Below are positions 8,541-17,654 of a stretch of 48,800 bases of DNA, piece by piece; positions within the stretch are counted from its first letter, which is position 1; each line of letters begins with the position of its first letter. Source of the DNA: a bacterium (GTDB lineage: Bacteria > SZUA-182 > DTGQ01 > JAFGSM01); NCBI GenBank assembly GCA_049472295.1, contig JBLIRM010000002.1, forward strand, positions 1 to 48,800, given 5' to 3'. The notes beneath the pieces were generated by a model. The model saw only the letters and a list, made by a program, of their open reading frames with translations, ran no database searches and was not told where the DNA came from. Both the position numbers and the translations under genes were made by a program.

Positions 8541-10115
8541 ATGGGGTCTTATTTCGTACTACCTTTCAGTGGATATTCCATGTATCCCCTCATCAAGCCG
8601 GGGGATCGACTGGTTGCCAAACCCGTTCACGCCCATTCCCTCAGGGTGGGTGATATTGTGGCCATCCCGGGTCCCGATAATGGACATGACATGGTCCATC
8701 GACTCATTAATGTATCACCCGATGGCAGAGGGATGACCAAGGGGGATGCCATGCTGAAGCCGGATCACAAGCAGGTCGAACTCACAATGGTTAGGGGCAG
8801 GGTTGAGGCGATCATCAGGGGACGCCGCTTGATCCCCATTTCGTCAGACCAGGGACCCGATATCAAAGGATTATATGGAAAGCTCGGTCAGAAAGGCATC
8901 TCTTACAGCTTTTTGAAATTAAAAAACAAGCTTCTATTTAATCAACTCCTTTCGAGGGATCAAAGCAAGAGACACAGCAAGGAAAGGGCCTTTATTCTCT
9001 CCACACTCCGGGGGAAGGTCCCGCCAGATCTTACGTCACCCGACTGGGATGCATTAACGGAAATGGCTTACAGGGAGGGTGCGACAGGGATTCTTTACAT
9101 GCGGCTCAAGGAGCAAGGAATCCCGGATGCCGTGCTTCTCCCATTCGAAAATTATCAACGCAATACCACCTTTATGAACCTGATCCATATAAGGGCAGTG
9201 GAAAGGCTGGAAGAGGCCTTAAAGGGAAAAGGGATCCAGGTAATGACCTTTAAGGGGGTCTGTCTCCTGGACATCGCCTACCCGCAGTTCGGGATGCGTT
9301 TCATGGACGACATCGACCTCATCGTGCGGCCGGAAGACCTGGAGCCATTTATGGGGATACTTCGCATTCTGGGTTATGAAAATCCAGGGCCATTATCCCA
9401 TCTATTCGTCAAAGACAATGTCACTATTGATCTTCACACCCATGCCCTGCACACAGATCGCATCGGAGGCAGGGGGGCCCTCTTCCCCTCCGGGATGGAG
9501 CCGCTTTGGGCATCCGCCATACCCTGGAAAAGCGGTTATCAGTATATCAAGCGGCCCGATGACGCAGACCATGTCCTTCTCCTCTGCCTGCACCTCTTAC
9601 AGCATTCCTTCTCCAGGCTCATCTGGTTGGAGGATATCCGCCGCCTGTTGGATCAAGGGGACCCGCACTTCTGGGAAAAGCTCAGAAACAGGTCCATCCT
9701 TTTCAAGCAGCGAAAGTCCCTTTCCTATACCCTCTATCTCCTGAGACTGCTTTTCAATTACGAACCTCCCCAGGAGTCAGTACTCAGCCTCTTATCTCAA
9801 AATATCTCCAAGGCTGAAAGGATGCTTCTGAACATCTATGCCACGGGCACACCGCTCAATCGCCTGGGCGTCCTCCTGGAATATTTCAGTATAACAAGAT
9901 TCAGAGATCGAATCCGATTTGGTTGGGAGACGCTGTTCCCAAAAAACAATGTCCTTAACCAGGAATTTGGCGTGTCTTCAATAGTTGAAAGGCTTTTCTT
10001 TTACCCTGGGCGTTTTTTTGAATTGATGAGCCTTTTGATCAAACTGATGCTCTCGATCCCGGGGGCAATGATCCGATCCACAAGATGTAAAAGGATAAAA
10101 AATACAGATGAATAA
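8541..10115 (+). CDS. fusion protein: N-terminal SipW/Sec11-type S26 peptidase domain plus 'uncharacterised nucleotidyltransferase' (NTP_transf_5-like) domain
   Basis: 524 aa. The first ~100 aa carry SGYSMYP (Ser nucleophile), GDIVAI, VHRLI (His) and TKGDAM, which is the motif order of SipW-type peptidases, and there is no N-terminal TM anchor. Residues ~170-330 (REGATGILYMRLKE...MTFKGVCLLDIAYPQFGMRFMDDIDLIVRPEDLEPFMGILRILGYE) look like the nucleotidyltransferase family found in lasso/RiPP clusters. Confidence 0.7.
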   Translation: MGSYFVLPFSGYSMYPLIKPGDRLVAKPVHAHSLRVGDIVAIPGPDNGHDMVHRLINVSPDGRGMTKGDAMLKPDHKQVELTMVRGRVEAIIRGRRLIPISSDQGPDIKGLYGKLGQKGISYSFLKLKNKLLFNQLLSRDQSKRHSKERAFILSTLRGKVPPDLTSPDWDALTEMAYREGATGILYMRLKEQGIPDAVLLPFENYQRNTTFMNLIHIRAVERLEEALKGKGIQVMTFKGVCLLDIAYPQFGMRFMDDIDLIVRPEDLEPFMGILRILGYENPGPLSHLFVKDNVTIDLHTHALHTDRIGGRGALFPSGMEPLWASAIPWKSGYQYIKRPDDADHVLLLCLHLLQHSFSRLIWLEDIRRLLDQGDPHFWEKLRNRSILFKQRKSLSYTLYLLRLLFNYEPPQESVLSLLSQNISKAERMLLNIYATGTPLNRLGVLLEYFSITRFRDRIRFGWETLFPKNNVLNQEFGVSSIVERLFFYPGRFFELMSLLIKLMLSIPGAMIRSTRCKRIKNTDE

Positions 10116-11802
10116 CCATCTTCAGATCATAAAAAGGATCATGGAAAAAGGCAGATCATACATCCCGGCATTCATAGCCCTTGCAGGTATGAATGCGGTC
10201 CTGGTACCTGTGGAATTCTATGGGCTCCTTCTTTCGCGAAAGATGATCGATCGAGGTTTCCTGCTCCGGAACTGGCCTACGATCAAAGGGATCATATTGA
10301 TCCTGTTTGGCCTTTTTGTTCTTCGAAGCCTCATCAATTACGCAAATGCAATTTTGTCCACGAATGTTCAGCTTCGAATGAATCAGAGATTCCAGAACGA
10401 ACTCTTCTCCCATCTTTTGCATCTGCCTATGCCTTTCTTTATGGAAGAATCCACCGGTCAACTGATGTCACGCCTTCTGGATGATGCCACACTTTTTTCA
10501 GCCATCCTAAAGGCAATCTTCCACAATGCACTTCTCGACCCGCTGAAACTCCTCCTCCTGACAACACTTCTTGCATATTTCAATCTTCGCCTCTGTTTGA
10601 TTATGGTGGTTTCAACCTTTTTTACCTTTCTGGTGATCCGCTGGATGGGGCATAGATTACGCGAAATCTCAAAAAGGACTCAGGAGAAGAACGCAGCCAT
10701 ATATAGTTTTGTGGCACAGATATTCTCTAACATCGAACTGATCAAATCAAAAATCACAGAAAAAAAGGAATCCGAAAGATTTCATCATCACATTGATGAG
10801 TTCATCGAACTGGCTCTCAAGACCTTAAAGATTTCACTCATTGCACAGCCCATCTTACAGATCCTGAAATATGCCACCCTCGGCATTGTGTTCATTTACG
10901 GAAGCTGGATGATATCAAAGGACATCCTGACCATCGGTACACTCACCATCTTCCTGGGAGCGACCTACCTCTTTTTCAATACACTGAATTCCCTCGGAAA
11001 TACCTATGGAGATCTGAGTGAGAATCTGGCCCGCATGGAAATCCTTTTCTCGATTCTGGATACCCCGCCAGAAGGGTCCGAAAAACAAACTTCCGTGATC
11101 GTCACGCCCCATATCAATACGATTGAATTCAAGCATGTATCCTTCGGATACCATCCCTCACAGCCGGTCCTGAACGATCTCTCCTTTTCCGTGAACAAGG
11201 GAGAGACCCTGGGTATCACCGGTCAAAGCGGCAGCGGCAAGACCACCATCATCCGCCTCCTGGTCGGATTTTATGAACCGAACACAGGTGAAATCAATCT
11301 GGACAAGGTATCCCTTCGCCACTGCGATCTGGCTACTCTCCGGCAAGCCATAGGGATCGTCTTTCAGGAAAACCTCATATTCAATGACTCCGTCAGGTAC
11401 AATATCGAATATGGCCTCGGAGATATCCCTGAATCAAAGATTATTCAGGCTGCCAAAACGTCCCAGGCCCATGAATTCATCCGGGCCATGCCCGGACAGT
11501 ATGAGACCATCATCGGTGAACAGGGGAAAAGGCTCTCAGGCGGTGAAAAGCAACGATTGGCCATTGCCAGGGCCATTGTGGCAGAACCCGAGATCCTAAT
11601 CCTGGATGAAGGCACCTCTTTTCTGGAGGTGGAACAGGAAAAGGCCATTCTAAAAAGGATCAGGCATATGAGAAAGGAAAAGATCACCATCATTATCTCA
11701 CACCGGCTTTCAGCCATGGAATCGGTGGATAGGATGCTGACGCTGGATAATGGCCGGATGATCGAGACAAATTTTCGGGCACTGGCAGGGATTTCTTATT
11801 GA
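10108..11802 (+). CDS. ABC exporter, fused permease/ATPase (type-I exporter, no C39 peptidase domain)
   Basis: 564 aa. An N-terminal six-TM-like region is followed by Walker A GQSGSGKTT, signature LSGGEKQRLAIARA, Walker B ILILDEGTS and H-loop IIISHR. It overlaps the upstream gene by 8 nt. Confidence 0.9.
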   Translation: MNNHLQIIKRIMEKGRSYIPAFIALAGMNAVLVPVEFYGLLLSRKMIDRGFLLRNWPTIKGIILILFGLFVLRSLINYANAILSTNVQLRMNQRFQNELFSHLLHLPMPFFMEESTGQLMSRLLDDATLFSAILKAIFHNALLDPLKLLLLTTLLAYFNLRLCLIMVVSTFFTFLVIRWMGHRLREISKRTQEKNAAIYSFVAQIFSNIELIKSKITEKKESERFHHHIDEFIELALKTLKISLIAQPILQILKYATLGIVFIYGSWMISKDILTIGTLTIFLGATYLFFNTLNSLGNTYGDLSENLARMEILFSILDTPPEGSEKQTSVIVTPHINTIEFKHVSFGYHPSQPVLNDLSFSVNKGETLGITGQSGSGKTTIIRLLVGFYEPNTGEINLDKVSLRHCDLATLRQAIGIVFQENLIFNDSVRYNIEYGLGDIPESKIIQAAKTSQAHEFIRAMPGQYETIIGEQGKRLSGGEKQRLAIARAIVAEPEILILDEGTSFLEVEQEKAILKRIRHMRKEKITIIISHRLSAMESVDRMLTLDNGRMIETNFRALAGISY

Positions 11803-11917
11803 AGATTCAAATTTTTGATTGATAACGCCCTCCAACGTTTCAAACCCGATTAACCGAAAAGTATATAGGTTTTTTCCCTCTGGATCGATAACACTTTGCA
11901 AGGAGGTCATACATAAA

Positions 11918-12196
11918 ATGGCAGAGCAAAAGAAACCGGTTGCCAATCCTTCAATAGTGCTCAGAGAGGAGTTCGATGACTGGGCCATCCTTTTTGATCC
12001 TGATTCCGGTCATGCCTTTGGGCTCAATCCTGTGGGCGTGTTTATATGGAAACACCTGGACGGAGACCATACCATCGAGGATATATACAAAGAGATCAGA
12101 GCAAAATACAAGGACATACCACATAAAACAAAGAAAGACATCAAAGATTTTGTCCGAAACCTTCTGGAAAAGGGTTTAACGGGATACGAGGCCTAA
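11918..12196 (+). CDS. PqqD-family peptide chaperone (RiPP recognition element)
   Basis: 92 aa from the ATG at 11918, with an AGGAGG RBS at 11901-11906. ILFDPDSGHAFGLNPVGVFIWKHLDGDHTIEDIYKEI...DIKDFVRNLLEKGL matches the PqqD pattern. It ends 7 nt upstream of a radical SAM gene. Confidence 0.8.
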   Translation: MAEQKKPVANPSIVLREEFDDWAILFDPDSGHAFGLNPVGVFIWKHLDGDHTIEDIYKEIRAKYKDIPHKTKKDIKDFVRNLLEKGLTGYEA

Positions 12197-12203
12197 GACC
12201 GAC

Positions 12204-13304
12204 ATGAAAATCATGAAAACACCCAGGTCAGTGGACATTGCCATAACGAACCAGTGCAATCTCCGGTGTACATATTGCAGCCATTTTACAAGCGCCGGTG
12301 ATGTGGACCAGGACCTTCCTCTGAAAGAATGGCTCCAATTCTTCAAAGAACTGGGCCAATGTGCGGTCATGGATCTGACCCTCGAGGGCGGGGAGCCATT
12401 CTGCCGCAAGGACCTGAGAGAGATCATTCAGGGGATCGTGGAAAATCATATGCGCTACCTGATACTGAGCAACGGGACTCTGATCACGGAGGATATGGCC
12501 GCCTTTCTCTCCTCCACCGGCCGGTGTAACGGGGTGCAGGTTTCTGTGGACGGCTCGACCCCGGCCACCCATGATGCAAGCCGGGGGCAAGGCACATTCT
12601 CAAAGGCCATCCAAGGGATCAAATCCCTTCAAAAACAGGATATCCCTGTTCATGTCCGCGTGACCATCAACAAATACAATATAGGGGACCTTGATGACAT
12701 TGCGGATCTGCTTTTGGACGAGATCGGCCTTGAGGATTTTTCCACCAATGCCGCCTCTTATATGGGCCTTTGCCGTCAGAATGCCGGGAATATCCAACTC
12801 AGCATAAAAGACCGCTCCGTGGCAATGGAGGCCCTTTTAAAACTTAACAAAAAATACCAGGGACGGATCAATGCCTCAGCAGGTCCCTTGGCTGATTTAA
12901 TACATTGGTCCGAGATGGAAAAGGCCCGCAAGGAGAATCTGGGATGCATGCCCGGGGGGGGATTTTTAACCGGATGCGGTGGGCCGATGAGCAAACTGGC
13001 CGTGCGGGCTGACGGTGTGATGGTCCCCTGTATCCAGTTGAGCCATATCGAACTGGGGCGGATCAACAGGGATAGTCTCCAGGAGATATGGCAGTCGCAT
13101 GAACGACTCGGGAGGCTCAGGCAGCGGTTTCAAATCCCTTTGAGCCGATTCGACTTCTGCAAGGGGTGCGATTACATGGATTATTGTACAGGGAACTGTC
13201 CTGCACTGGCCTATACCATGGTAGGGGAGGAGAATCATCCCAGTCCCGATGCCTGCTTCAGGCGATTCCTGGAGGAGGGGGGGAGCCTGCCGGATGAAAG
13301 ATAG
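12204..13304 (+). CDS. radical SAM / SPASM-domain peptide maturase 1
   Basis: 366 aa. CNLRCTYC (CX3CX2C) sits at the N-terminus. The C-terminal region has GCGGP...VPC followed by CKGCDYMDYCTGNC (CX2CX5CX3C, the canonical SPASM motif). Confidence 0.9.
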   Translation: MKIMKTPRSVDIAITNQCNLRCTYCSHFTSAGDVDQDLPLKEWLQFFKELGQCAVMDLTLEGGEPFCRKDLREIIQGIVENHMRYLILSNGTLITEDMAAFLSSTGRCNGVQVSVDGSTPATHDASRGQGTFSKAIQGIKSLQKQDIPVHVRVTINKYNIGDLDDIADLLLDEIGLEDFSTNAASYMGLCRQNAGNIQLSIKDRSVAMEALLKLNKKYQGRINASAGPLADLIHWSEMEKARKENLGCMPGGGFLTGCGGPMSKLAVRADGVMVPCIQLSHIELGRINRDSLQEIWQSHERLGRLRQRFQIPLSRFDFCKGCDYMDYCTGNCPALAYTMVGEENHPSPDACFRRFLEEGGSLPDER

Positions 13305-14532
13305 ATATCCGTTGAACCAGATATATTTCTATCTGACCGAGGGGTGCAACCTGCGATGCCGTCACTGCTGGATTGCACCCAAATACCAGACGGAATCCCA
13401 AACCTGCCGGACACTGGACCCGGACCTTTTCCAAAAGATCTTGAATCAGGCAAGGTCATTAGGGATCTCAGGGGTGAAATTAACCGGGGGTGAACCGCTT
13501 CTTCATCCCAGGATCCCCGAGATCCTGGAGATTGTGCGTCATGAGGCCCTTCAGCTCACTGTGGAGACCAACGGGGTCCTCTGTACGCCGGAGCTTGCCC
13601 GTGCCATGGCAGACTGCAAGCATCCTTTTATATCGGTAAGCCTGGACGGCGCCGATGCCGGAACCCATGAGTGGGTCAGAGGGGTGAGCGGCTGTTTTGA
13701 TGCCTGCCTGGAAGGCATCCGGAATCTTGTTAGGGCAGGCCTTCATCCGCAGATTATCATGACGGTCATGCGCCGGAATAAGGAGCAGATGGAGCCTGTG
13801 GTGCATCTTGCAGAGCACTTAGGGGCGTGTTCGGTCAAGTTCAATGTGGTCCAGCCCACAGCCAGAGGGGAAAAGATGCACCAGTCCAATGAGGCCCTGA
13901 GCATTGAGGAGCTTCTGGATCTGGGGAGATGGGTGGAGGATACCCTCTCTGTCTCGACCCGTCTGTCCGTTCGATATTCCCATCCGCCGGCCTTTCGTCC
14001 GCTGGGAAGCATGTTTGGAGAACAAGGAGACGGATGCAGTGTCTGCGGGATTCTGAATATTCTGGGGGTCCTGGCTGACGGTTCCTATGCCCTTTGCGGT
14101 ATCGGCGAGACCATGCCCGATCTGGTTTTCGGCCATGCGTCATTGGACCCCTTGGAGGAGATCTGGAAAAATACCCCTGTGCTCTTGGAGCTCCGAAAGG
14201 GTCTTCCCCAGCGTCTTGAAGGGATCTGCGCTGACTGTATCATGAAGGGGATCTGCCTGGGAAGCTGTATTGCCCAGAACTATTACCGCAGCAAGAATAT
14301 CTGGTCACCATTCTGGTATTGTGAGGAGGCATTGAACCAGGGCATCTTTCCCGAGAACCGGATGAGCACCAACCCATATCCCCATTGTAAAAAAGCAAAC
14401 AAACCTATGAAAGAAAAGCACCATAAAGGCCAAAACAAAAGGGCCTTTACTGGGCGTAACACAGAAAAGGCAGGGATACCGAACAGGTATCGGTCTGCCC
14501 GGAGGGGAGATAACCATGTCCTTACCATATGA
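13294..14532 (+). CDS. radical SAM / SPASM-domain peptide maturase 2
   Basis: Start taken at the ATG at 13294 (MKDRYPLNQIYFYLTEGCNLRCRHCW), overlapping maturase 1 by 11 nt. SPASM motif CADCIMKGICLGSC. A ~50-aa basic, low-complexity C-terminal tail overlaps the next ORF. Confidence 0.85.
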   Translation: MKDRYPLNQIYFYLTEGCNLRCRHCWIAPKYQTESQTCRTLDPDLFQKILNQARSLGISGVKLTGGEPLLHPRIPEILEIVRHEALQLTVETNGVLCTPELARAMADCKHPFISVSLDGADAGTHEWVRGVSGCFDACLEGIRNLVRAGLHPQIIMTVMRRNKEQMEPVVHLAEHLGACSVKFNVVQPTARGEKMHQSNEALSIEELLDLGRWVEDTLSVSTRLSVRYSHPPAFRPLGSMFGEQGDGCSVCGILNILGVLADGSYALCGIGETMPDLVFGHASLDPLEEIWKNTPVLLELRKGLPQRLEGICADCIMKGICLGSCIAQNYYRSKNIWSPFWYCEEALNQGIFPENRMSTNPYPHCKKANKPMKEKHHKGQNKRAFTGRNTEKAGIPNRYRSARRGDNHVLTI

Positions 14533-14740
14533 GAAACCCGTCCTGGTCCCATTCCGGTTTGATCAGACTCAAGTGGGGAGAGGGAAATGCGCAACCGGCT
14601 CCGGGGATTCCGGGAATTGCCAGCCCGGAACGGCACCTGCAGGGAAATGCCTTTCCGGTACGGATGATTTGGTGATACCAAAAAAATGCGAACCCGGGGC
14701 AGTCGCATCAAATAAATGTACTGCAGGTGGCGTAAACTGA
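14516..14740 (+). CDS. candidate RiPP precursor peptide, five [K/N]-C-x-x-G repeats
   Basis: 74 aa with a GGAGGGGAG RBS at 14502-14510. A Cys-free N-terminal part (MSLPYEKPVLVPFRFDQTQVGRG) is followed by GKCATGS, GNCQPGT, GKCLSGT, KKCEPGA and NKCTAGG, with Cys at residues 25/35/45/58/68. It lies immediately after the two maturases. Confidence 0.7.
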   Translation: MSLPYEKPVLVPFRFDQTQVGRGKCATGSGDSGNCQPGTAPAGKCLSGTDDLVIPKKCEPGAVASNKCTAGGVN

Positions 14741-15645
14741 ATAAAAAAACGCAATCAAAAAAGGGAAAGGGATACCTGATCCGCCTGGCCGATGGCCAGG
14801 TCTGGCATATGACTGCCTCCGAAGAGATCTCTCCCTGGGTCGGGAGGCTGGCATCCATGATGGAACTCGGAGAATATCAATCCAAGGGATACCCCAGGCT
14901 GATATTCGTCCGGGGAAGATCAATCGAAACACCGGCTAATTCAATGGCACAAAAAAATCTCCCCGAAAAGGGCTGGGGCAGCAGAGACTTCAGGAGTGTT
15001 CAATTATGGTTCCATCCGGAGGTGCCGGATGTTATCTGTGAAATCGGACCCGGCTCCGATCATGAACTGGACATTCTGAGGATGTGGCTGTCCCTTGATC
15101 CTATTTATCAGAGGGCACAGGAATCGGGTGGCCTCCCCTTTCATGCGGCATTAATCGAAAGGGATGGGATGGGTGTATTACTGGCTGCCCCCGGAGATAC
15201 GGGGAAATCTACCTGTTGCATGCGAATTCCACACCCATGGCGGGCCTTATGCGATGACGAGGCCCTTGTGGTGCAAAATGATCAGAAACAATATCTGGTG
15301 CACCCTTTTCCGACCTGGAGTGATTACCTCTGGCGAAGATCGCGGCGCACATGGAATGTGCAGCATTATGTCCCCTTAAAGGCACTGTTCTTTCTGAAAC
15401 AGGCTGAGGTGGATGAAGCGCTTCCCATGAAGGAGAGCCAGGCTGCATTATATGCCAACAATGCAGCGATACAGGTATCACGCCGTACCTGGCGACATAT
15501 GGATCGAACGGAGGTCACGGTCACCAGAAAAAGGCTATTCGAAAACGCCTGCCAGCTCGCCAAGGCAATCCCGGCATTCATCCTGAGCGTAAGCATATCC
15601 GGAAGATTCTGGGAGGAGATGGAAAAGGTCATTGAAGATAGATAA
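14716..15645 (+). CDS. HPr-kinase-like P-loop protein (HprK-related / ScmC-like)
   Basis: 309 aa. FHAALIERDGMGVLLAAPGDTGKST (P-loop at 15193-15213) parallels the HprK/P C-terminal domain G-V-L-I-x-G-x-S-G-x-GKS. The start is uncertain: the ATG at 14716 lies inside the precursor ORF, and the next ATG is at 14809. Confidence 0.65.
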   Translation: MYCRWRKLNKKTQSKKGKGYLIRLADGQVWHMTASEEISPWVGRLASMMELGEYQSKGYPRLIFVRGRSIETPANSMAQKNLPEKGWGSRDFRSVQLWFHPEVPDVICEIGPGSDHELDILRMWLSLDPIYQRAQESGGLPFHAALIERDGMGVLLAAPGDTGKSTCCMRIPHPWRALCDDEALVVQNDQKQYLVHPFPTWSDYLWRRSRRTWNVQHYVPLKALFFLKQAEVDEALPMKESQAALYANNAAIQVSRRTWRHMDRTEVTVTRKRLFENACQLAKAIPAFILSVSISGRFWEEMEKVIEDR

Positions 15646-16273
15646 ACGAAAAAAGCCGGCAAAAGTGACATCCATGAACTTCACAGGTCCGAGTATGCGT
15701 CCCATACTCAAGCATGGAGACCTGCTTCAGGTCATTCCCTATGACGGGCAAAAAATTCATCCAGGGGATGTTATTGTTTTTGTTCCTCCGGAAGGGGAGC
15801 AGAGGATTGTTCACCGCGTCATCTCAATCGGCTCCGAAGGCATCCGGACCCGGGGAGACTATTGCACGCATATCGATCCTTGGATACTCAATCCTCACCA
15901 TGTCATCGGACGGGTAATCTATGCCATCCGAGGGAAAAAACAGCAGAGGATATACGGAGGATTTTGGGGGTGTTTATCTGCCATGGCTGTCAGGGCTTTT
16001 CATCTGACAGACGGCATCATATCTTCCCTGTTCAGACCAGTCTATTACTGGATGGCCTGCAAAGGCAGCATCAGACGCTGGACTAAAGGTCTTTTCCAAA
16101 CCCGGGTGCTTTCTTTTAAAAGACCGGATGGCACGGAACTTCAGATTCTTATAGGGAGACGCGTTGTGGGAAGGTGGCTTCCGGGCAAGGATGGGTGGCA
16201 TATCCGGAGACCCTTCCGTCTCTTTGTGAATGAGGCATCCTTGCCGGAGAATCCCTCCAAATCATCAAAATAA
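15632..16273 (+). CDS. SipW/Sec11-type S26 peptidase-like protein without N-terminal anchor
   Basis: GPSMRPILKHGDLL, GDVIVF, IVHRVI and TRGDYC occur in the same order as in the N-terminal domain of the 8541 gene. The C-terminal ~100 aa are unassigned. The track start is a TTG at 15632; an alternative ATG is at 15674. Confidence 0.7.
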   Translation: MKIDKRKKPAKVTSMNFTGPSMRPILKHGDLLQVIPYDGQKIHPGDVIVFVPPEGEQRIVHRVISIGSEGIRTRGDYCTHIDPWILNPHHVIGRVIYAIRGKKQQRIYGGFWGCLSAMAVRAFHLTDGIISSLFRPVYYWMACKGSIRRWTKGLFQTRVLSFKRPDGTELQILIGRRVVGRWLPGKDGWHIRRPFRLFVNEASLPENPSKSSK

Positions 16274-16299
16274 CACTCGCTTTTTTAACTTCTCAGGGT

Positions 16300-16328
16300 T
16301 TGACATAGGCATGGAATCCATATTAAAT
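16300..16328 (+). promoter_or_regulatory. possible sigma70-type promoter (TTGACA-17-TTAAAT)
   Basis: TTGACA at 16300-16305, a 17-nt spacer, then TTAAAT at 16323-16328. It lies in the 60-80 nt gap before the phosphoglycerate mutase gene. Confidence 0.3.
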
Positions 16329-16355
16329 GGGTGAAAAATGGAGGTAAGGGAAAGG

Positions 16356-17654
16356 ATGAGATGTATCCTCATCATTCTGGATGGTATCGGTGACAGGGGC
16401 CAACCGGCCTTTAAAGGAAAGACACCCCTTCAGGCGGCATCCACGCCAAATCTGGACAGGCTTGCAGGCCTCGGTATGTGCGGCCTCTATCACAGCAGCC
16501 TTCAGGGCATCCCCATGCCCAGTGAAATCGCCCATTTTCTCATGTTCGGCTATGACAGCGATGAATTTCCCGGACGGGGGTTAATCGAGGCCCTGGGGTA
16601 CGGCATCCCGATGAAAGATGGGGATGTGGCGCTCCTTGCCCGGATCTTCTCCGTCTCCCCCTGGGAGAATCTTTTGGTACTCACCCATGAAGATCCTGAG
16701 ATCGATAAGGAGACCTGCCGGACCCTGCATGACGAGATCAGCTACTTCAAGGATGAAGCCATTGAGATGGAATTCCATCCCACCCGAGGGATCCAGGGGA
16801 TACTCCGGATGCGTGGGGAGGTATCCGCCCGGATCACGGATTCAAACCCCATCCGGGAGGGAAGGCCACTGATGGAGGTATGTCCGTATTTGGAAAGCAT
16901 CCAGGATCCGAGTGCAATCAAAACAGCCAGGGCATTGAACCGGTATCTTTTGTGGTGCCACAAAAGACTCGCCGCACATCCGGTCAATAAAGAGAGAACA
17001 AGAAAGGGCCTCCTCCCTATCAATGCTCTGGGGACCCAGAGACCCGGAATCAAAGGACCGATTGTCCCCTTTAATGAAAAATGGGGGCTCAGGGGGCTTT
17101 CCATTGCATCGGGTCCCGTGTTCTGGGGGCTTGCGAAATCCATCGGCATGGATATGATCAAGGAAAAGGACACCCGGGACCCGGGGACCGATTTCAGGCT
17201 GCGGCTTGCGCATGCCCAAAAGGCCCTGGATTACGATTTTATCCATGTTCACACGAAGATGCCTGATGTGGCATCCCACACCAAAAATCCCGATTATAAG
17301 AAACAGATCATAGAGCAGCTCGACAAGGCCCTTTCCTTTGCTGTGGATCATTTTGTTTCCGATCCGGAGATACTGATTGTGGTCACAGCGGATCATGCCA
17401 CTCCGAGCAGCGGTCCCATGATCCATTCGGGGGAAACCGTCCCTATCCTTATGGCCGGGAAGAATATCCGGAAGGATGCTGTAAAAGCATTCGATGAGGT
17501 CGCCTGTGCCTCTGGTGCTCTGGGGCTTGTCAAGGGAAAAGAATTGATGTACCTCGTTCTGAATCTCATGGACCGGGCCAAGCTGAAAGGGCTCATGGAC
17601 TCCCCGGTGGACCAGCCATACACGCCGGGTCCTTACAGACCTTTGAAGATCTGA
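16356..17654 (+). CDS. apgM: 2,3-bisphosphoglycerate-independent phosphoglycerate mutase, archaeal (ApgM) type
   Basis: ILIILDGIGDRGQPAFKGKTPLQAASTPNLDRLAGLGMCGL at the N-terminus, then HVHTKMPDVASH and VVTADHATPS. Start at ATG 16356 or ATG 16338. Confidence 0.75.
   Translation: MRCILIILDGIGDRGQPAFKGKTPLQAASTPNLDRLAGLGMCGLYHSSLQGIPMPSEIAHFLMFGYDSDEFPGRGLIEALGYGIPMKDGDVALLARIFSVSPWENLLVLTHEDPEIDKETCRTLHDEISYFKDEAIEMEFHPTRGIQGILRMRGEVSARITDSNPIREGRPLMEVCPYLESIQDPSAIKTARALNRYLLWCHKRLAAHPVNKERTRKGLLPINALGTQRPGIKGPIVPFNEKWGLRGLSIASGPVFWGLAKSIGMDMIKEKDTRDPGTDFRLRLAHAQKALDYDFIHVHTKMPDVASHTKNPDYKKQIIEQLDKALSFAVDHFVSDPEILIVVTADHATPSSGPMIHSGETVPILMAGKNIRKDAVKAFDEVACASGALGLVKGKELMYLVLNLMDRAKLKGLMDSPVDQPYTPGPYRPLKI

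Follow-up and report, generated by a model that had tools for sequence, protein, structure and literature searches.

What would a protein resembling HPr kinase do in a cluster of radical S-adenosylmethionine (SAM) maturase genes, beside a gene for a small cysteine-rich peptide? The question is raised by a 48,800-nucleotide (nt) stretch of bacterial DNA, hereafter the window (positions 1 to 48,800 of contig JBLIRM010000002.1, GenBank assembly GCA_049472295.1; GTDB lineage SZUA-182; DTGQ01; JAFGSM01), in which one open reading frame (ORF) encodes a 309-residue P-loop protein. A sequence-only reading of this DNA had proposed that the protein, together with a nucleotidyltransferase encoded from position 8541, modifies the peptide with phosphate and then with nucleotidyl or sugar groups, as related enzymes do in lasso-peptide clusters. 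Scoring against curated family models identifies a complete SynChlorMet (SCM) ribosomal-peptide cassette, of which the 309-residue protein is the ScmC component. The best available reading is that ScmC phosphorylates the precursor with ATP and that the PF14907 enzyme then decorates it. We give this reading a probability of about 0.45, the grounds for it being catalytic residues that are conserved, synteny and the lasso-peptide precedent.

Identification of the Locus

Four proteins encoded in the window, ScmC, ScmD, ScmE and ScmF, scored above the curated NCBIfam cut-offs of the SCM models (TIGR04248 ScmD, TIGR04249 ScmC, TIGR04250 ScmE, TIGR04251 ScmF, TIGR04252 ScmA; see also PF27840), and the genes of ScmD, ScmE and ScmF are adjacent on the strand of ScmC (Table 1). 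The match of ScmC to TIGR04249 spans positions 1-291 of the 292 in the model, and the precomputed PF27840 label, 'ScmC', was carried by all 120 homologues listed. The SCM cassette was reportedly defined by bioinformatic means by Haft and Basu in 2011. The window shares with it the order D-E-F-precursor-C, the leader type and a precursor with CxxG repeats, but differs in opening with a fusion of an S26 peptidase to a PF14907 nucleotidyltransferase, in having the ATP-binding cassette (ABC) exporter upstream and not downstream, and in a precursor that stays below the ScmA cut-off.

As judged from these models, the genes are securely identified and belong to catalogued families, and the annotation is routine, with a standard family to name each component. 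The radical-SAM surroundings, which the sequence-only reading had set against the usual lasso-cluster context of the two families, are actually the defining architecture of a catalogued cassette (TIGR04248-04252) with ScmC as a core member.

Fold and Conserved Residues of ScmC

The P-loop of ScmC, G160-D-T-G-K-S-T166, is encoded by nt 15193-15213 of the ORF 14716-15645, exactly as had been read from the sequence, and its proposed likeness to the Walker-A region of HprK/P was borne out. The top PDB sequence match of ScmC was HprK/P of L. casei (1jb1, E 0.067); in this alignment GMGVLLAAPGDTGKST, present in ScmC, falls on the HprK/P Walker-A region, and H143 (nt 15142-15144) corresponds to His140, K164/S165 to Lys161/Ser162, and D180/D181 (nt 15253-15258) to Asp178/Asp179. 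A PDB profile search with the ScmC alignment returned E 0.43, with no gain over the single sequence. ScmC has Ala in place of the first Walker A Gly. Among family models, the HprK-related kinases A/B (TIGR04352, TIGR04355) were the best non-ScmC family for all 20 diverse homologues examined, kinase A being matched by 20 of 20 (best E 2.4e-8). The match of the window protein to kinase A is, however, confined to about 50 residues around the P-loop (residues 140-190, E 1.5e-7), and its 30.8 bits fall short of the cut-off, 200. A search of 96 genomes turned up no TIGR04352 protein.

HprK/P itself (PF07475, TIGR00679) and phosphoenolpyruvate carboxykinase (PEPCK) share with ScmC the P-loop fold and the equivalents of His140, Lys161, Ser162, Asp178 and Asp179. 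ScmC nevertheless lies far under the HprK/P family thresholds, does not keep the signature motif, has another N-terminal domain and occurs in a genomic context without a link to the phosphotransferase system (PTS). PF07475 was touched by 13 of the 20 homologues and TIGR00679 by 7, always below threshold, and the TIGR00679 profile gave no match to the window ScmC.

The residues aligned with the HprK/P catalytic site proved to be conserved when the 89 ScmC proteins of the fetched genomes were compared. H143, G163, K164, T166, R170, W175, H196 and T200 were present in 100% of them and D180 in 99%, while positions 181 and 165 were restricted to Asp/Glu and Ser/Thr, respectively. The Cys residues of ScmC (GKSTCC, C108, C279) were also considered as ligands of a metal or Fe-S site, but as they are just 70-85% conserved, such a site was dropped as a family feature.

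An AlphaFold (AF2) model of ScmC, built on 20 homologues, reached a predicted local distance difference test (pLDDT) of 85.8 and a predicted template modelling score (pTM) of 0.85. The top 50 PDB matches returned by Foldseek were GTP-dependent PEPCKs (E about 1e-8, template modelling (TM) score about 0.5 over the query), and the match covers both domains of ScmC. The HprK/P catalytic domain belongs to the PEPCK fold class. The relationship between ScmC and HprK/P is remote yet consistent. Since a PEPCK/HPr-kinase fold is combined with conserved His, Lys-Ser/Thr and Asp-Asp residues, ScmC looks like an active phosphotransferase of the HprK/PEPCK superfamily, outside the HprK/P family proper.

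Genomic Linkage and Precursor Pairing

Eighty ScmC loci were found on scanning one genome per species. They lie in Thermodesulfobacteriota and other 'delta' lineages, Aminicenantes, Omnitrophota, Saganbacteria, Margulisiibacteriota, Chlorobia and Brocadiaceae among the bacteria, and in the methanogen groups Methanotrichaceae, Methanocella and Methanogenium. The cassette is sporadic: among 20 genomes examined from the phylum of the window, ScmC was present only in the genome of the window.

Linkage was counted with iterated hidden Markov models built from the window proteins, at the 40 loci having at least 6 kb of flank on both sides. ScmE/F occurred in 32 of these, ScmD in 32, an S26 peptidase in 31, an ABC exporter in 28 and a PF14907-type protein in 26, the set of ScmD, ScmE and ScmF accompanying ScmC in 30-32. 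The prevalent gene order was D-E-F-precursor-C-S26-(transferase)-(ABC), and it was repeated on independent Pfam-labelled metagenome contigs. Within one class, ScmC was above cut-off in 10 of 11 ScmE-positive genomes and in none of five ScmE-negative ones (0/5), so that the linkage to SPASM maturases in orthologous loci, whose absence would have counted against the sequence-only reading, holds. ScmC is a core cassette member, and the PF14907 transferase a frequent accessory.

A Cys-repeat peptide ORF lies directly upstream of 53 of 84 ScmC genes. Tandem precursor-ScmC pairs were found three times over in locus L079 (6847-10996) and repeatedly in L032, L044, L063, L075 and L081, with paralogues 31-44% identical; L069 has two pairs, with 62% identity. 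No such repetition with each pair is seen for ScmD, ScmE, ScmF, the peptidase or the exporter, although one extra ScmF-type gene is present in a few of these loci. As precursor-ScmC units are duplicated with strongly diverged ScmC copies, this pattern suggests that ScmC is a substrate-specific primary, or core, enzyme and not an optional tailoring enzyme.

The same gene arrangements bear on a different role, in which ScmC would be no peptide kinase but a nucleotide-driven, precursor-specific adaptor or chaperone presenting the peptide to the S26 leader peptidase or the maturases, its P-loop serving only for nucleotide binding or hydrolysis. Such a role would accommodate the S26 gene found directly 3' of 49 of 92 ScmC genes (median gap 2 nt), the ScmD-ScmC-S26 or ScmC-S26 sets kept away from ScmE/F, the duplication of precursor-ScmC pairs that share one peptidase and one set of maturases, and the lack of a conserved phospho-acceptor position. 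It does not account, however, for a general-base-type Asp pair and a His conserved at 99-100%, beyond what nucleotide binding needs, and the closest characterised relatives of ScmC, namely HprK/P and the lasso-peptide kinases PadeK and PsmK, are true kinases. We therefore regard an adaptor as unlikely, and ScmC acting as a kinase on its own precursor as the preferred interpretation.

Precursor Peptides

The window precursor has a leader containing YEKPVLVPF, a Shine-Dalgarno sequence upstream (GGAGGGGAG) and a core with five Cys, every one in a CxxG motif (CATGS, CQPGT, CLSGT, CEPGA, CTAGG). Its YEKPxL-type leader and CxxG repeats are common to 53 non-redundant peptides adjoining ScmC genes, which were compared at 378 Cys sites with shuffled cores as control. 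Their consensus leader is K-[LIM]-K-Y/W-E-K-P-x-L-[IV]-x-L, and their cores are rich in Gly, Ser, Thr, Ala and Asn. The Cys of a core, from 3 to over 10 in number, are spaced mostly by 9-11 residues. The leader Tyr (YEKP) was rejected as a candidate phospho-acceptor, Trp being found at that site in 8 of 50 leaders.

The sequence-only reading had seen Ser/Thr at a fixed offset from three of the five Cys, and the motifs concerned, CATGS, CQPGT and CLSGT, are indeed present. At the family level Ser/Thr occupies position Cys+4 at 36% of the sites against 21% in shuffled cores (z 7.4), and Cys+4 or +5 at 59% against 38% (z 8.9). What is dominant is Gly at Cys+3, with 68-70% against 19% (z 26); the CxxG is conserved, and a fixed Ser/Thr is not. 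The offset from Cys to Ser/Thr is thus a real but soft tendency of the family. Residues accepting radical-SAM thioether crosslinks would fit it just as well as phospho-acceptors, and it does not discriminate between the two.

The enrichment of Ser/Thr 4-5 residues past Cys would also suit a transient activation, in which ScmC phosphorylates a Ser/Thr oxygen, or a backbone oxygen as in YcaO-type chemistry, to create a leaving group, and the phosphate is eliminated or displaced as a crosslink to the nearby Cys forms, leaving the mature peptide phosphate-free. ScmC is core and matched one-to-one with precursors, like a primary maturase, and its fold match is to PEPCK, a fold whose enzymes are known to phosphorylate an enolate oxygen. 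Yet the cassette holds no lyase or cyclase homologue (NCBIfam, Pfam), its two radical-SAM/SPASM enzymes already explain Cys crosslinking, most individual repeats are without Ser/Thr, and the linked nucleotidyltransferase would be left without a phosphate substrate. These points make a transient phosphate improbable in comparison with a stable phosphorylation of the precursor by ScmC.

The PF14907 Transferase and the Lasso-Peptide Precedent

The nucleotidyltransferase noticed in the protein encoded from 8541 was confirmed as a PF14907 NTP_transf_5 domain at residues 166-406 (150.9 bits, cut-off 31.2), including the elements K238-G239, D256-D257-I-D259 and G278-Y279 on which its recognition had relied. 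A pattern of the form G...DxD...D is the classical triad of the nucleotidyltransferase fold. In 24 cassette-linked transferase homologues sequence identity is about 20%, yet G239 (nt 9255-9257), D257 and D259 (nt 9309-9317) and D365 (nt 9633-9635) are invariant. The AF2 model of the 524-residue protein had a pLDDT of 77, and its best PDB folds were those of ANT(2'')-Ia (5cfu, 5cfs, 4xje; TM 0.62-0.65 over the target). The N-terminus (residues 5-100 approximately) is S26/SEC11-like, with weak sigpep_I matches on residues 8-89 and a fold match of the modelled domain to SEC11A/C.

In the lasso-peptide systems of paeninodin and pseudomycoidin, the kinases PadeK and PsmK phosphorylate the C-terminal Ser, and phosphorylation is lost in the D158A/D159A mutant of PsmK. 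Zyubko et al. modelled PsmN on ANT(2'') templates and found a DxD mutant of PsmN to be without hexose modification, while leaving open whether PsmN merely makes the substrate for a host glycosyltransferase. ScmC and the window transferase resemble this pair in several respects: ScmC belongs to the HprK superfamily and aligns with the Asp-Asp pair essential in PsmK, and its partner is likewise an 'uncharacterised nucleotidyltransferase' with the DxD essential in PsmN and an ANT(2'')-like fold. Lasso clusters also contain a PqqD-family protein and an ABC exporter, and their transferase is at times fused to the leader peptidase. On the other hand, maturation in the SCM cassette is assigned to radical-SAM/SPASM enzymes, the peptidase in the fusion belongs to the S26 and not to the transglutaminase type, and no lasso cyclase, B1 or B2 protein was matched among the nine proteins encoded at 8541-17654 (NCBIfam, Pfam). 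ScmC has its own family model and the HPxPTWS motif, and the C-terminal Ser used as acceptor by the lasso kinases is missing from SCM precursors.

The transferase of lasso clusters is at times fused to the B2 leader protease, which is unrelated to S26. As PF14907 transferases are fused to unrelated leader peptidases in the SCM and lasso systems, the comparison points to a function coupled to leader removal. Fusions of S26 and PF14907 recur at 8541-10115 of the window, in L008 (11351-13387), in L030 (10837-12828) and in L086 (10349-12328; L086/L087), and a 659-residue Peptidase_S26+NTP_transf_5 fusion was seen on independent metagenome contigs with precomputed Pfam labels.

The possibility left open by Zyubko et al. 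for PsmN extends to the whole pair, in that ScmC and the PF14907 protein might act on a target other than the peptide, such as a protein of regulation or immunity, a sugar nucleotide or a small-molecule cofactor, and be linked to the cassette only indirectly. Orphan ScmC genes without cassette neighbours (L062, L076) would fit such a role. The tight synteny with precursor genes and the one-to-one duplication of precursor and ScmC speak against it, however, and a bona fide ScmE was found elsewhere in five of the seven genomes whose ScmC loci are without radical-SAM neighbours. We consider a non-peptide target very improbable.

Proposed Pathway

In the preferred reading, that of phosphorylation by ScmC and decoration by the PF14907 enzyme, ScmC would bind its own precursor and, with ATP, another nucleoside triphosphate or pyrophosphate, phosphorylate side-chain hydroxyls of the CxxG-[S/T] repeats. 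ScmE and ScmF would put in Cys-derived crosslinks, and the PF14907 enzyme would then attach a sugar or a nucleotidyl moiety at the phosphate or the hydroxyl, after the example of PsmN in pseudomycoidin. Removal of the YEKPxL leader would fall to the S26 peptidases and export of the product to the ABC protein.

Several observations weigh against this reading. On the side of the enzyme, the window ScmC reaches only 12.6 bits with PF07475 (HprK_C), below the threshold of 33.3. The signature of HprK/P after the Asp pair is E-x-R-G-x-G; this motif is not conserved in ScmC, which has instead an invariant family motif, H196-P-x-P-T-W-S202. In the 1jb1 alignment the aligned stretch ends with HPFPTWSD of ScmC opposite PPILSH, and ScmC continues with YLWRRSRRTW, without ExRGxG. 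P-loop proteins of the PEPCK fold are also known to perform chemistry beyond protein phosphorylation. On the side of the substrate, no Ser/Thr position is conserved in the 53 precursors: Gly (24%) and Asn (10%) are alternatives at Cys+4, Gly being as common as Ser, and 3 of the 53 are without any C-x-x-x-[S/T]. The C-terminal residue is Asn in the window precursor and Ser in just 7 of the 53. The lasso precedent invoked by the sequence-only reading therefore does not carry over to the acceptor site, and the site rule of the lasso kinases is inapplicable here because the C-terminal Ser is absent. In addition, a third of the full-flank loci are without the PF14907 transferase, which rules out a second decoration common to all of them. 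The literature searched contained no biochemical data on any SCM protein and no mention of SynChlorMet; it also returned nothing relevant that combines HPr kinase with radical SAM, and ScmC, ScmD, ScmE and ScmF appeared there as unrelated acronyms.

A more far-reaching proposal is that radical-SAM Cys crosslinks coexist in SCM peptides with phosphate esters that bear a sugar or nucleotide cap, these decorations being installed by a portable module of PqqD protein, HprK-like kinase and PF14907 transferase shared with the lasso peptides of Firmicutes. In contrast to the lasso systems, there would be a dedicated kinase for each precursor, and the transferase would be coupled to leader cleavage. 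Taken as a whole, this proposal is less likely than not.

Organization of the Cassette and Related Loci

The eight genes of the cassette occupy positions 8541-16273 of the plus strand and are packed tightly or overlap (Table 1). The ScmC gene overlaps the 3' end of the precursor gene by 25 nt and the following gene by 14 nt. The true start of ScmF may be the Met at 13294, as the TIGR04251 model begins at residue 20. The ABC exporter is without a C39 peptidase domain. The top PDB sequence match of the stand-alone S26 protein is SEC11C, and this protein is a probable leader peptidase. On the same strand, 65 nt past the cassette, lies apgM (16338-17654), encoding an archaeal-type cofactor-independent phosphoglycerate mutase (341 bits). 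It was considered as a cassette-linked phosphotransferase and ruled out, a similar gene being present in none of the other ScmC loci (0/80); apgM is probably an unrelated neighbour.

Table 1. Predicted genes of the SCM cassette in the window, with the family-model scores behind each assignment.
Predicted product	Position	Strand	Basis
S26/SEC11-like peptidase and PF14907 nucleotidyltransferase fusion, 524 aa	8541-10115	+	Pfam, NCBIfam, AF2 model
ABC exporter, permease and ATPase fused, MsbA-like	10108-11802	+	PF00664 and PF00005
ScmD, PqqD-family peptide-binding (RRE-type) protein	11819-12196	+	TIGR04248, 135 bits (cut-off 100); PF05402, 62.6 bits
ScmE, radical-SAM/SPASM maturase	12204-13304	+	TIGR04250, 612.6 bits (cut-off 400)
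ScmF, second radical-SAM/SPASM maturase	13249-14532	+	TIGR04251, 612.9 bits (cut-off 400)
ScmA-like precursor, 74 aa	14516-14740	+	TIGR04252, 20.1 bits (cut-off 35); leader and repeat pattern
ScmC, HprK/PEPCK-fold P-loop protein, 309 aa	14716-15645	+	TIGR04249, 314.9 bits (cut-off 125)
Stand-alone S26/SEC11-like peptidase, 213 aa	15632-16273	+	PF10502, 25.5 bits (cut-off 22.9); sigpep_I_arch, 48 bits

A second, divergent SCM-like cluster was found in the same genome (L083, 5454-11160; contig C90, 17453-23159). Its maturases are ScmE-like (219 bits, below cut-off) and ScmF-like (283 bits), and they are accompanied by a B12-binding radical-SAM protein, two PqqD proteins, a 346-residue HprK/PEPCK-like P-loop protein scoring 22 bits with the ScmC model, and a precursor-like ORF (9700-10062) with the leader KQYEPPQV and CxxG repeats; no S26 peptidase or PF14907 gene lies nearby.

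Departures from the common arrangement were also seen in other genomes. In one deltaproteobacterial clade (L003, 7610-11584; L010, 7887-11721), genes for an ScmD-like protein, ScmC and an S26 peptidase stand beside carB, away from ScmE/F, with an opposite-strand HDOD-domain gene between ScmD and ScmC. The ScmD frame of L041 continues into a precursor-like leader, through either a fusion or a frameshift. L042 (9045-14591) begins with a small ORF having the leader KFEKPKLIRI and a tail poor in Cys but rich in Pro and Gly. Genes for PqqD, ScmC, ABC and PF14907 proteins come next; the 10 kb upstream contain no radical-SAM gene, and ScmE lies on another contig of that genome. The C-terminal P-loop domain of ScmC occurs alone (approximately model positions 115-292) in three genomes (G094:C38:11028-11558, G095:C31:3885-4406 and G083:C1:5098112-5098639), within ORFs of 504-541 residues that have a different N-terminal architecture and stand beside ScmE-like genes just under the cut-off.

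Significance

Newly noted here are the tandem duplication of precursor-ScmC pairs, the S26 gene following ScmC, the recurrent S26-PF14907 fusion and the sporadic occurrence of the cassette. The comparison offers experimental handles in H143, K164 and D180/D181 of ScmC, in cognate precursor-ScmC pairs and in the S26-transferase fusions. The SCM family is sizeable, with about 910 ScmC clusters at 50% identity (E up to 1e-30), and extends across many anaerobic bacterial and archaeal lineages. Phosphorylation is rare among ribosomal natural products. If the proposed reading is true, the presence of radical-SAM crosslinks and phospho-ester decoration in one peptide would represent a new chemotype.

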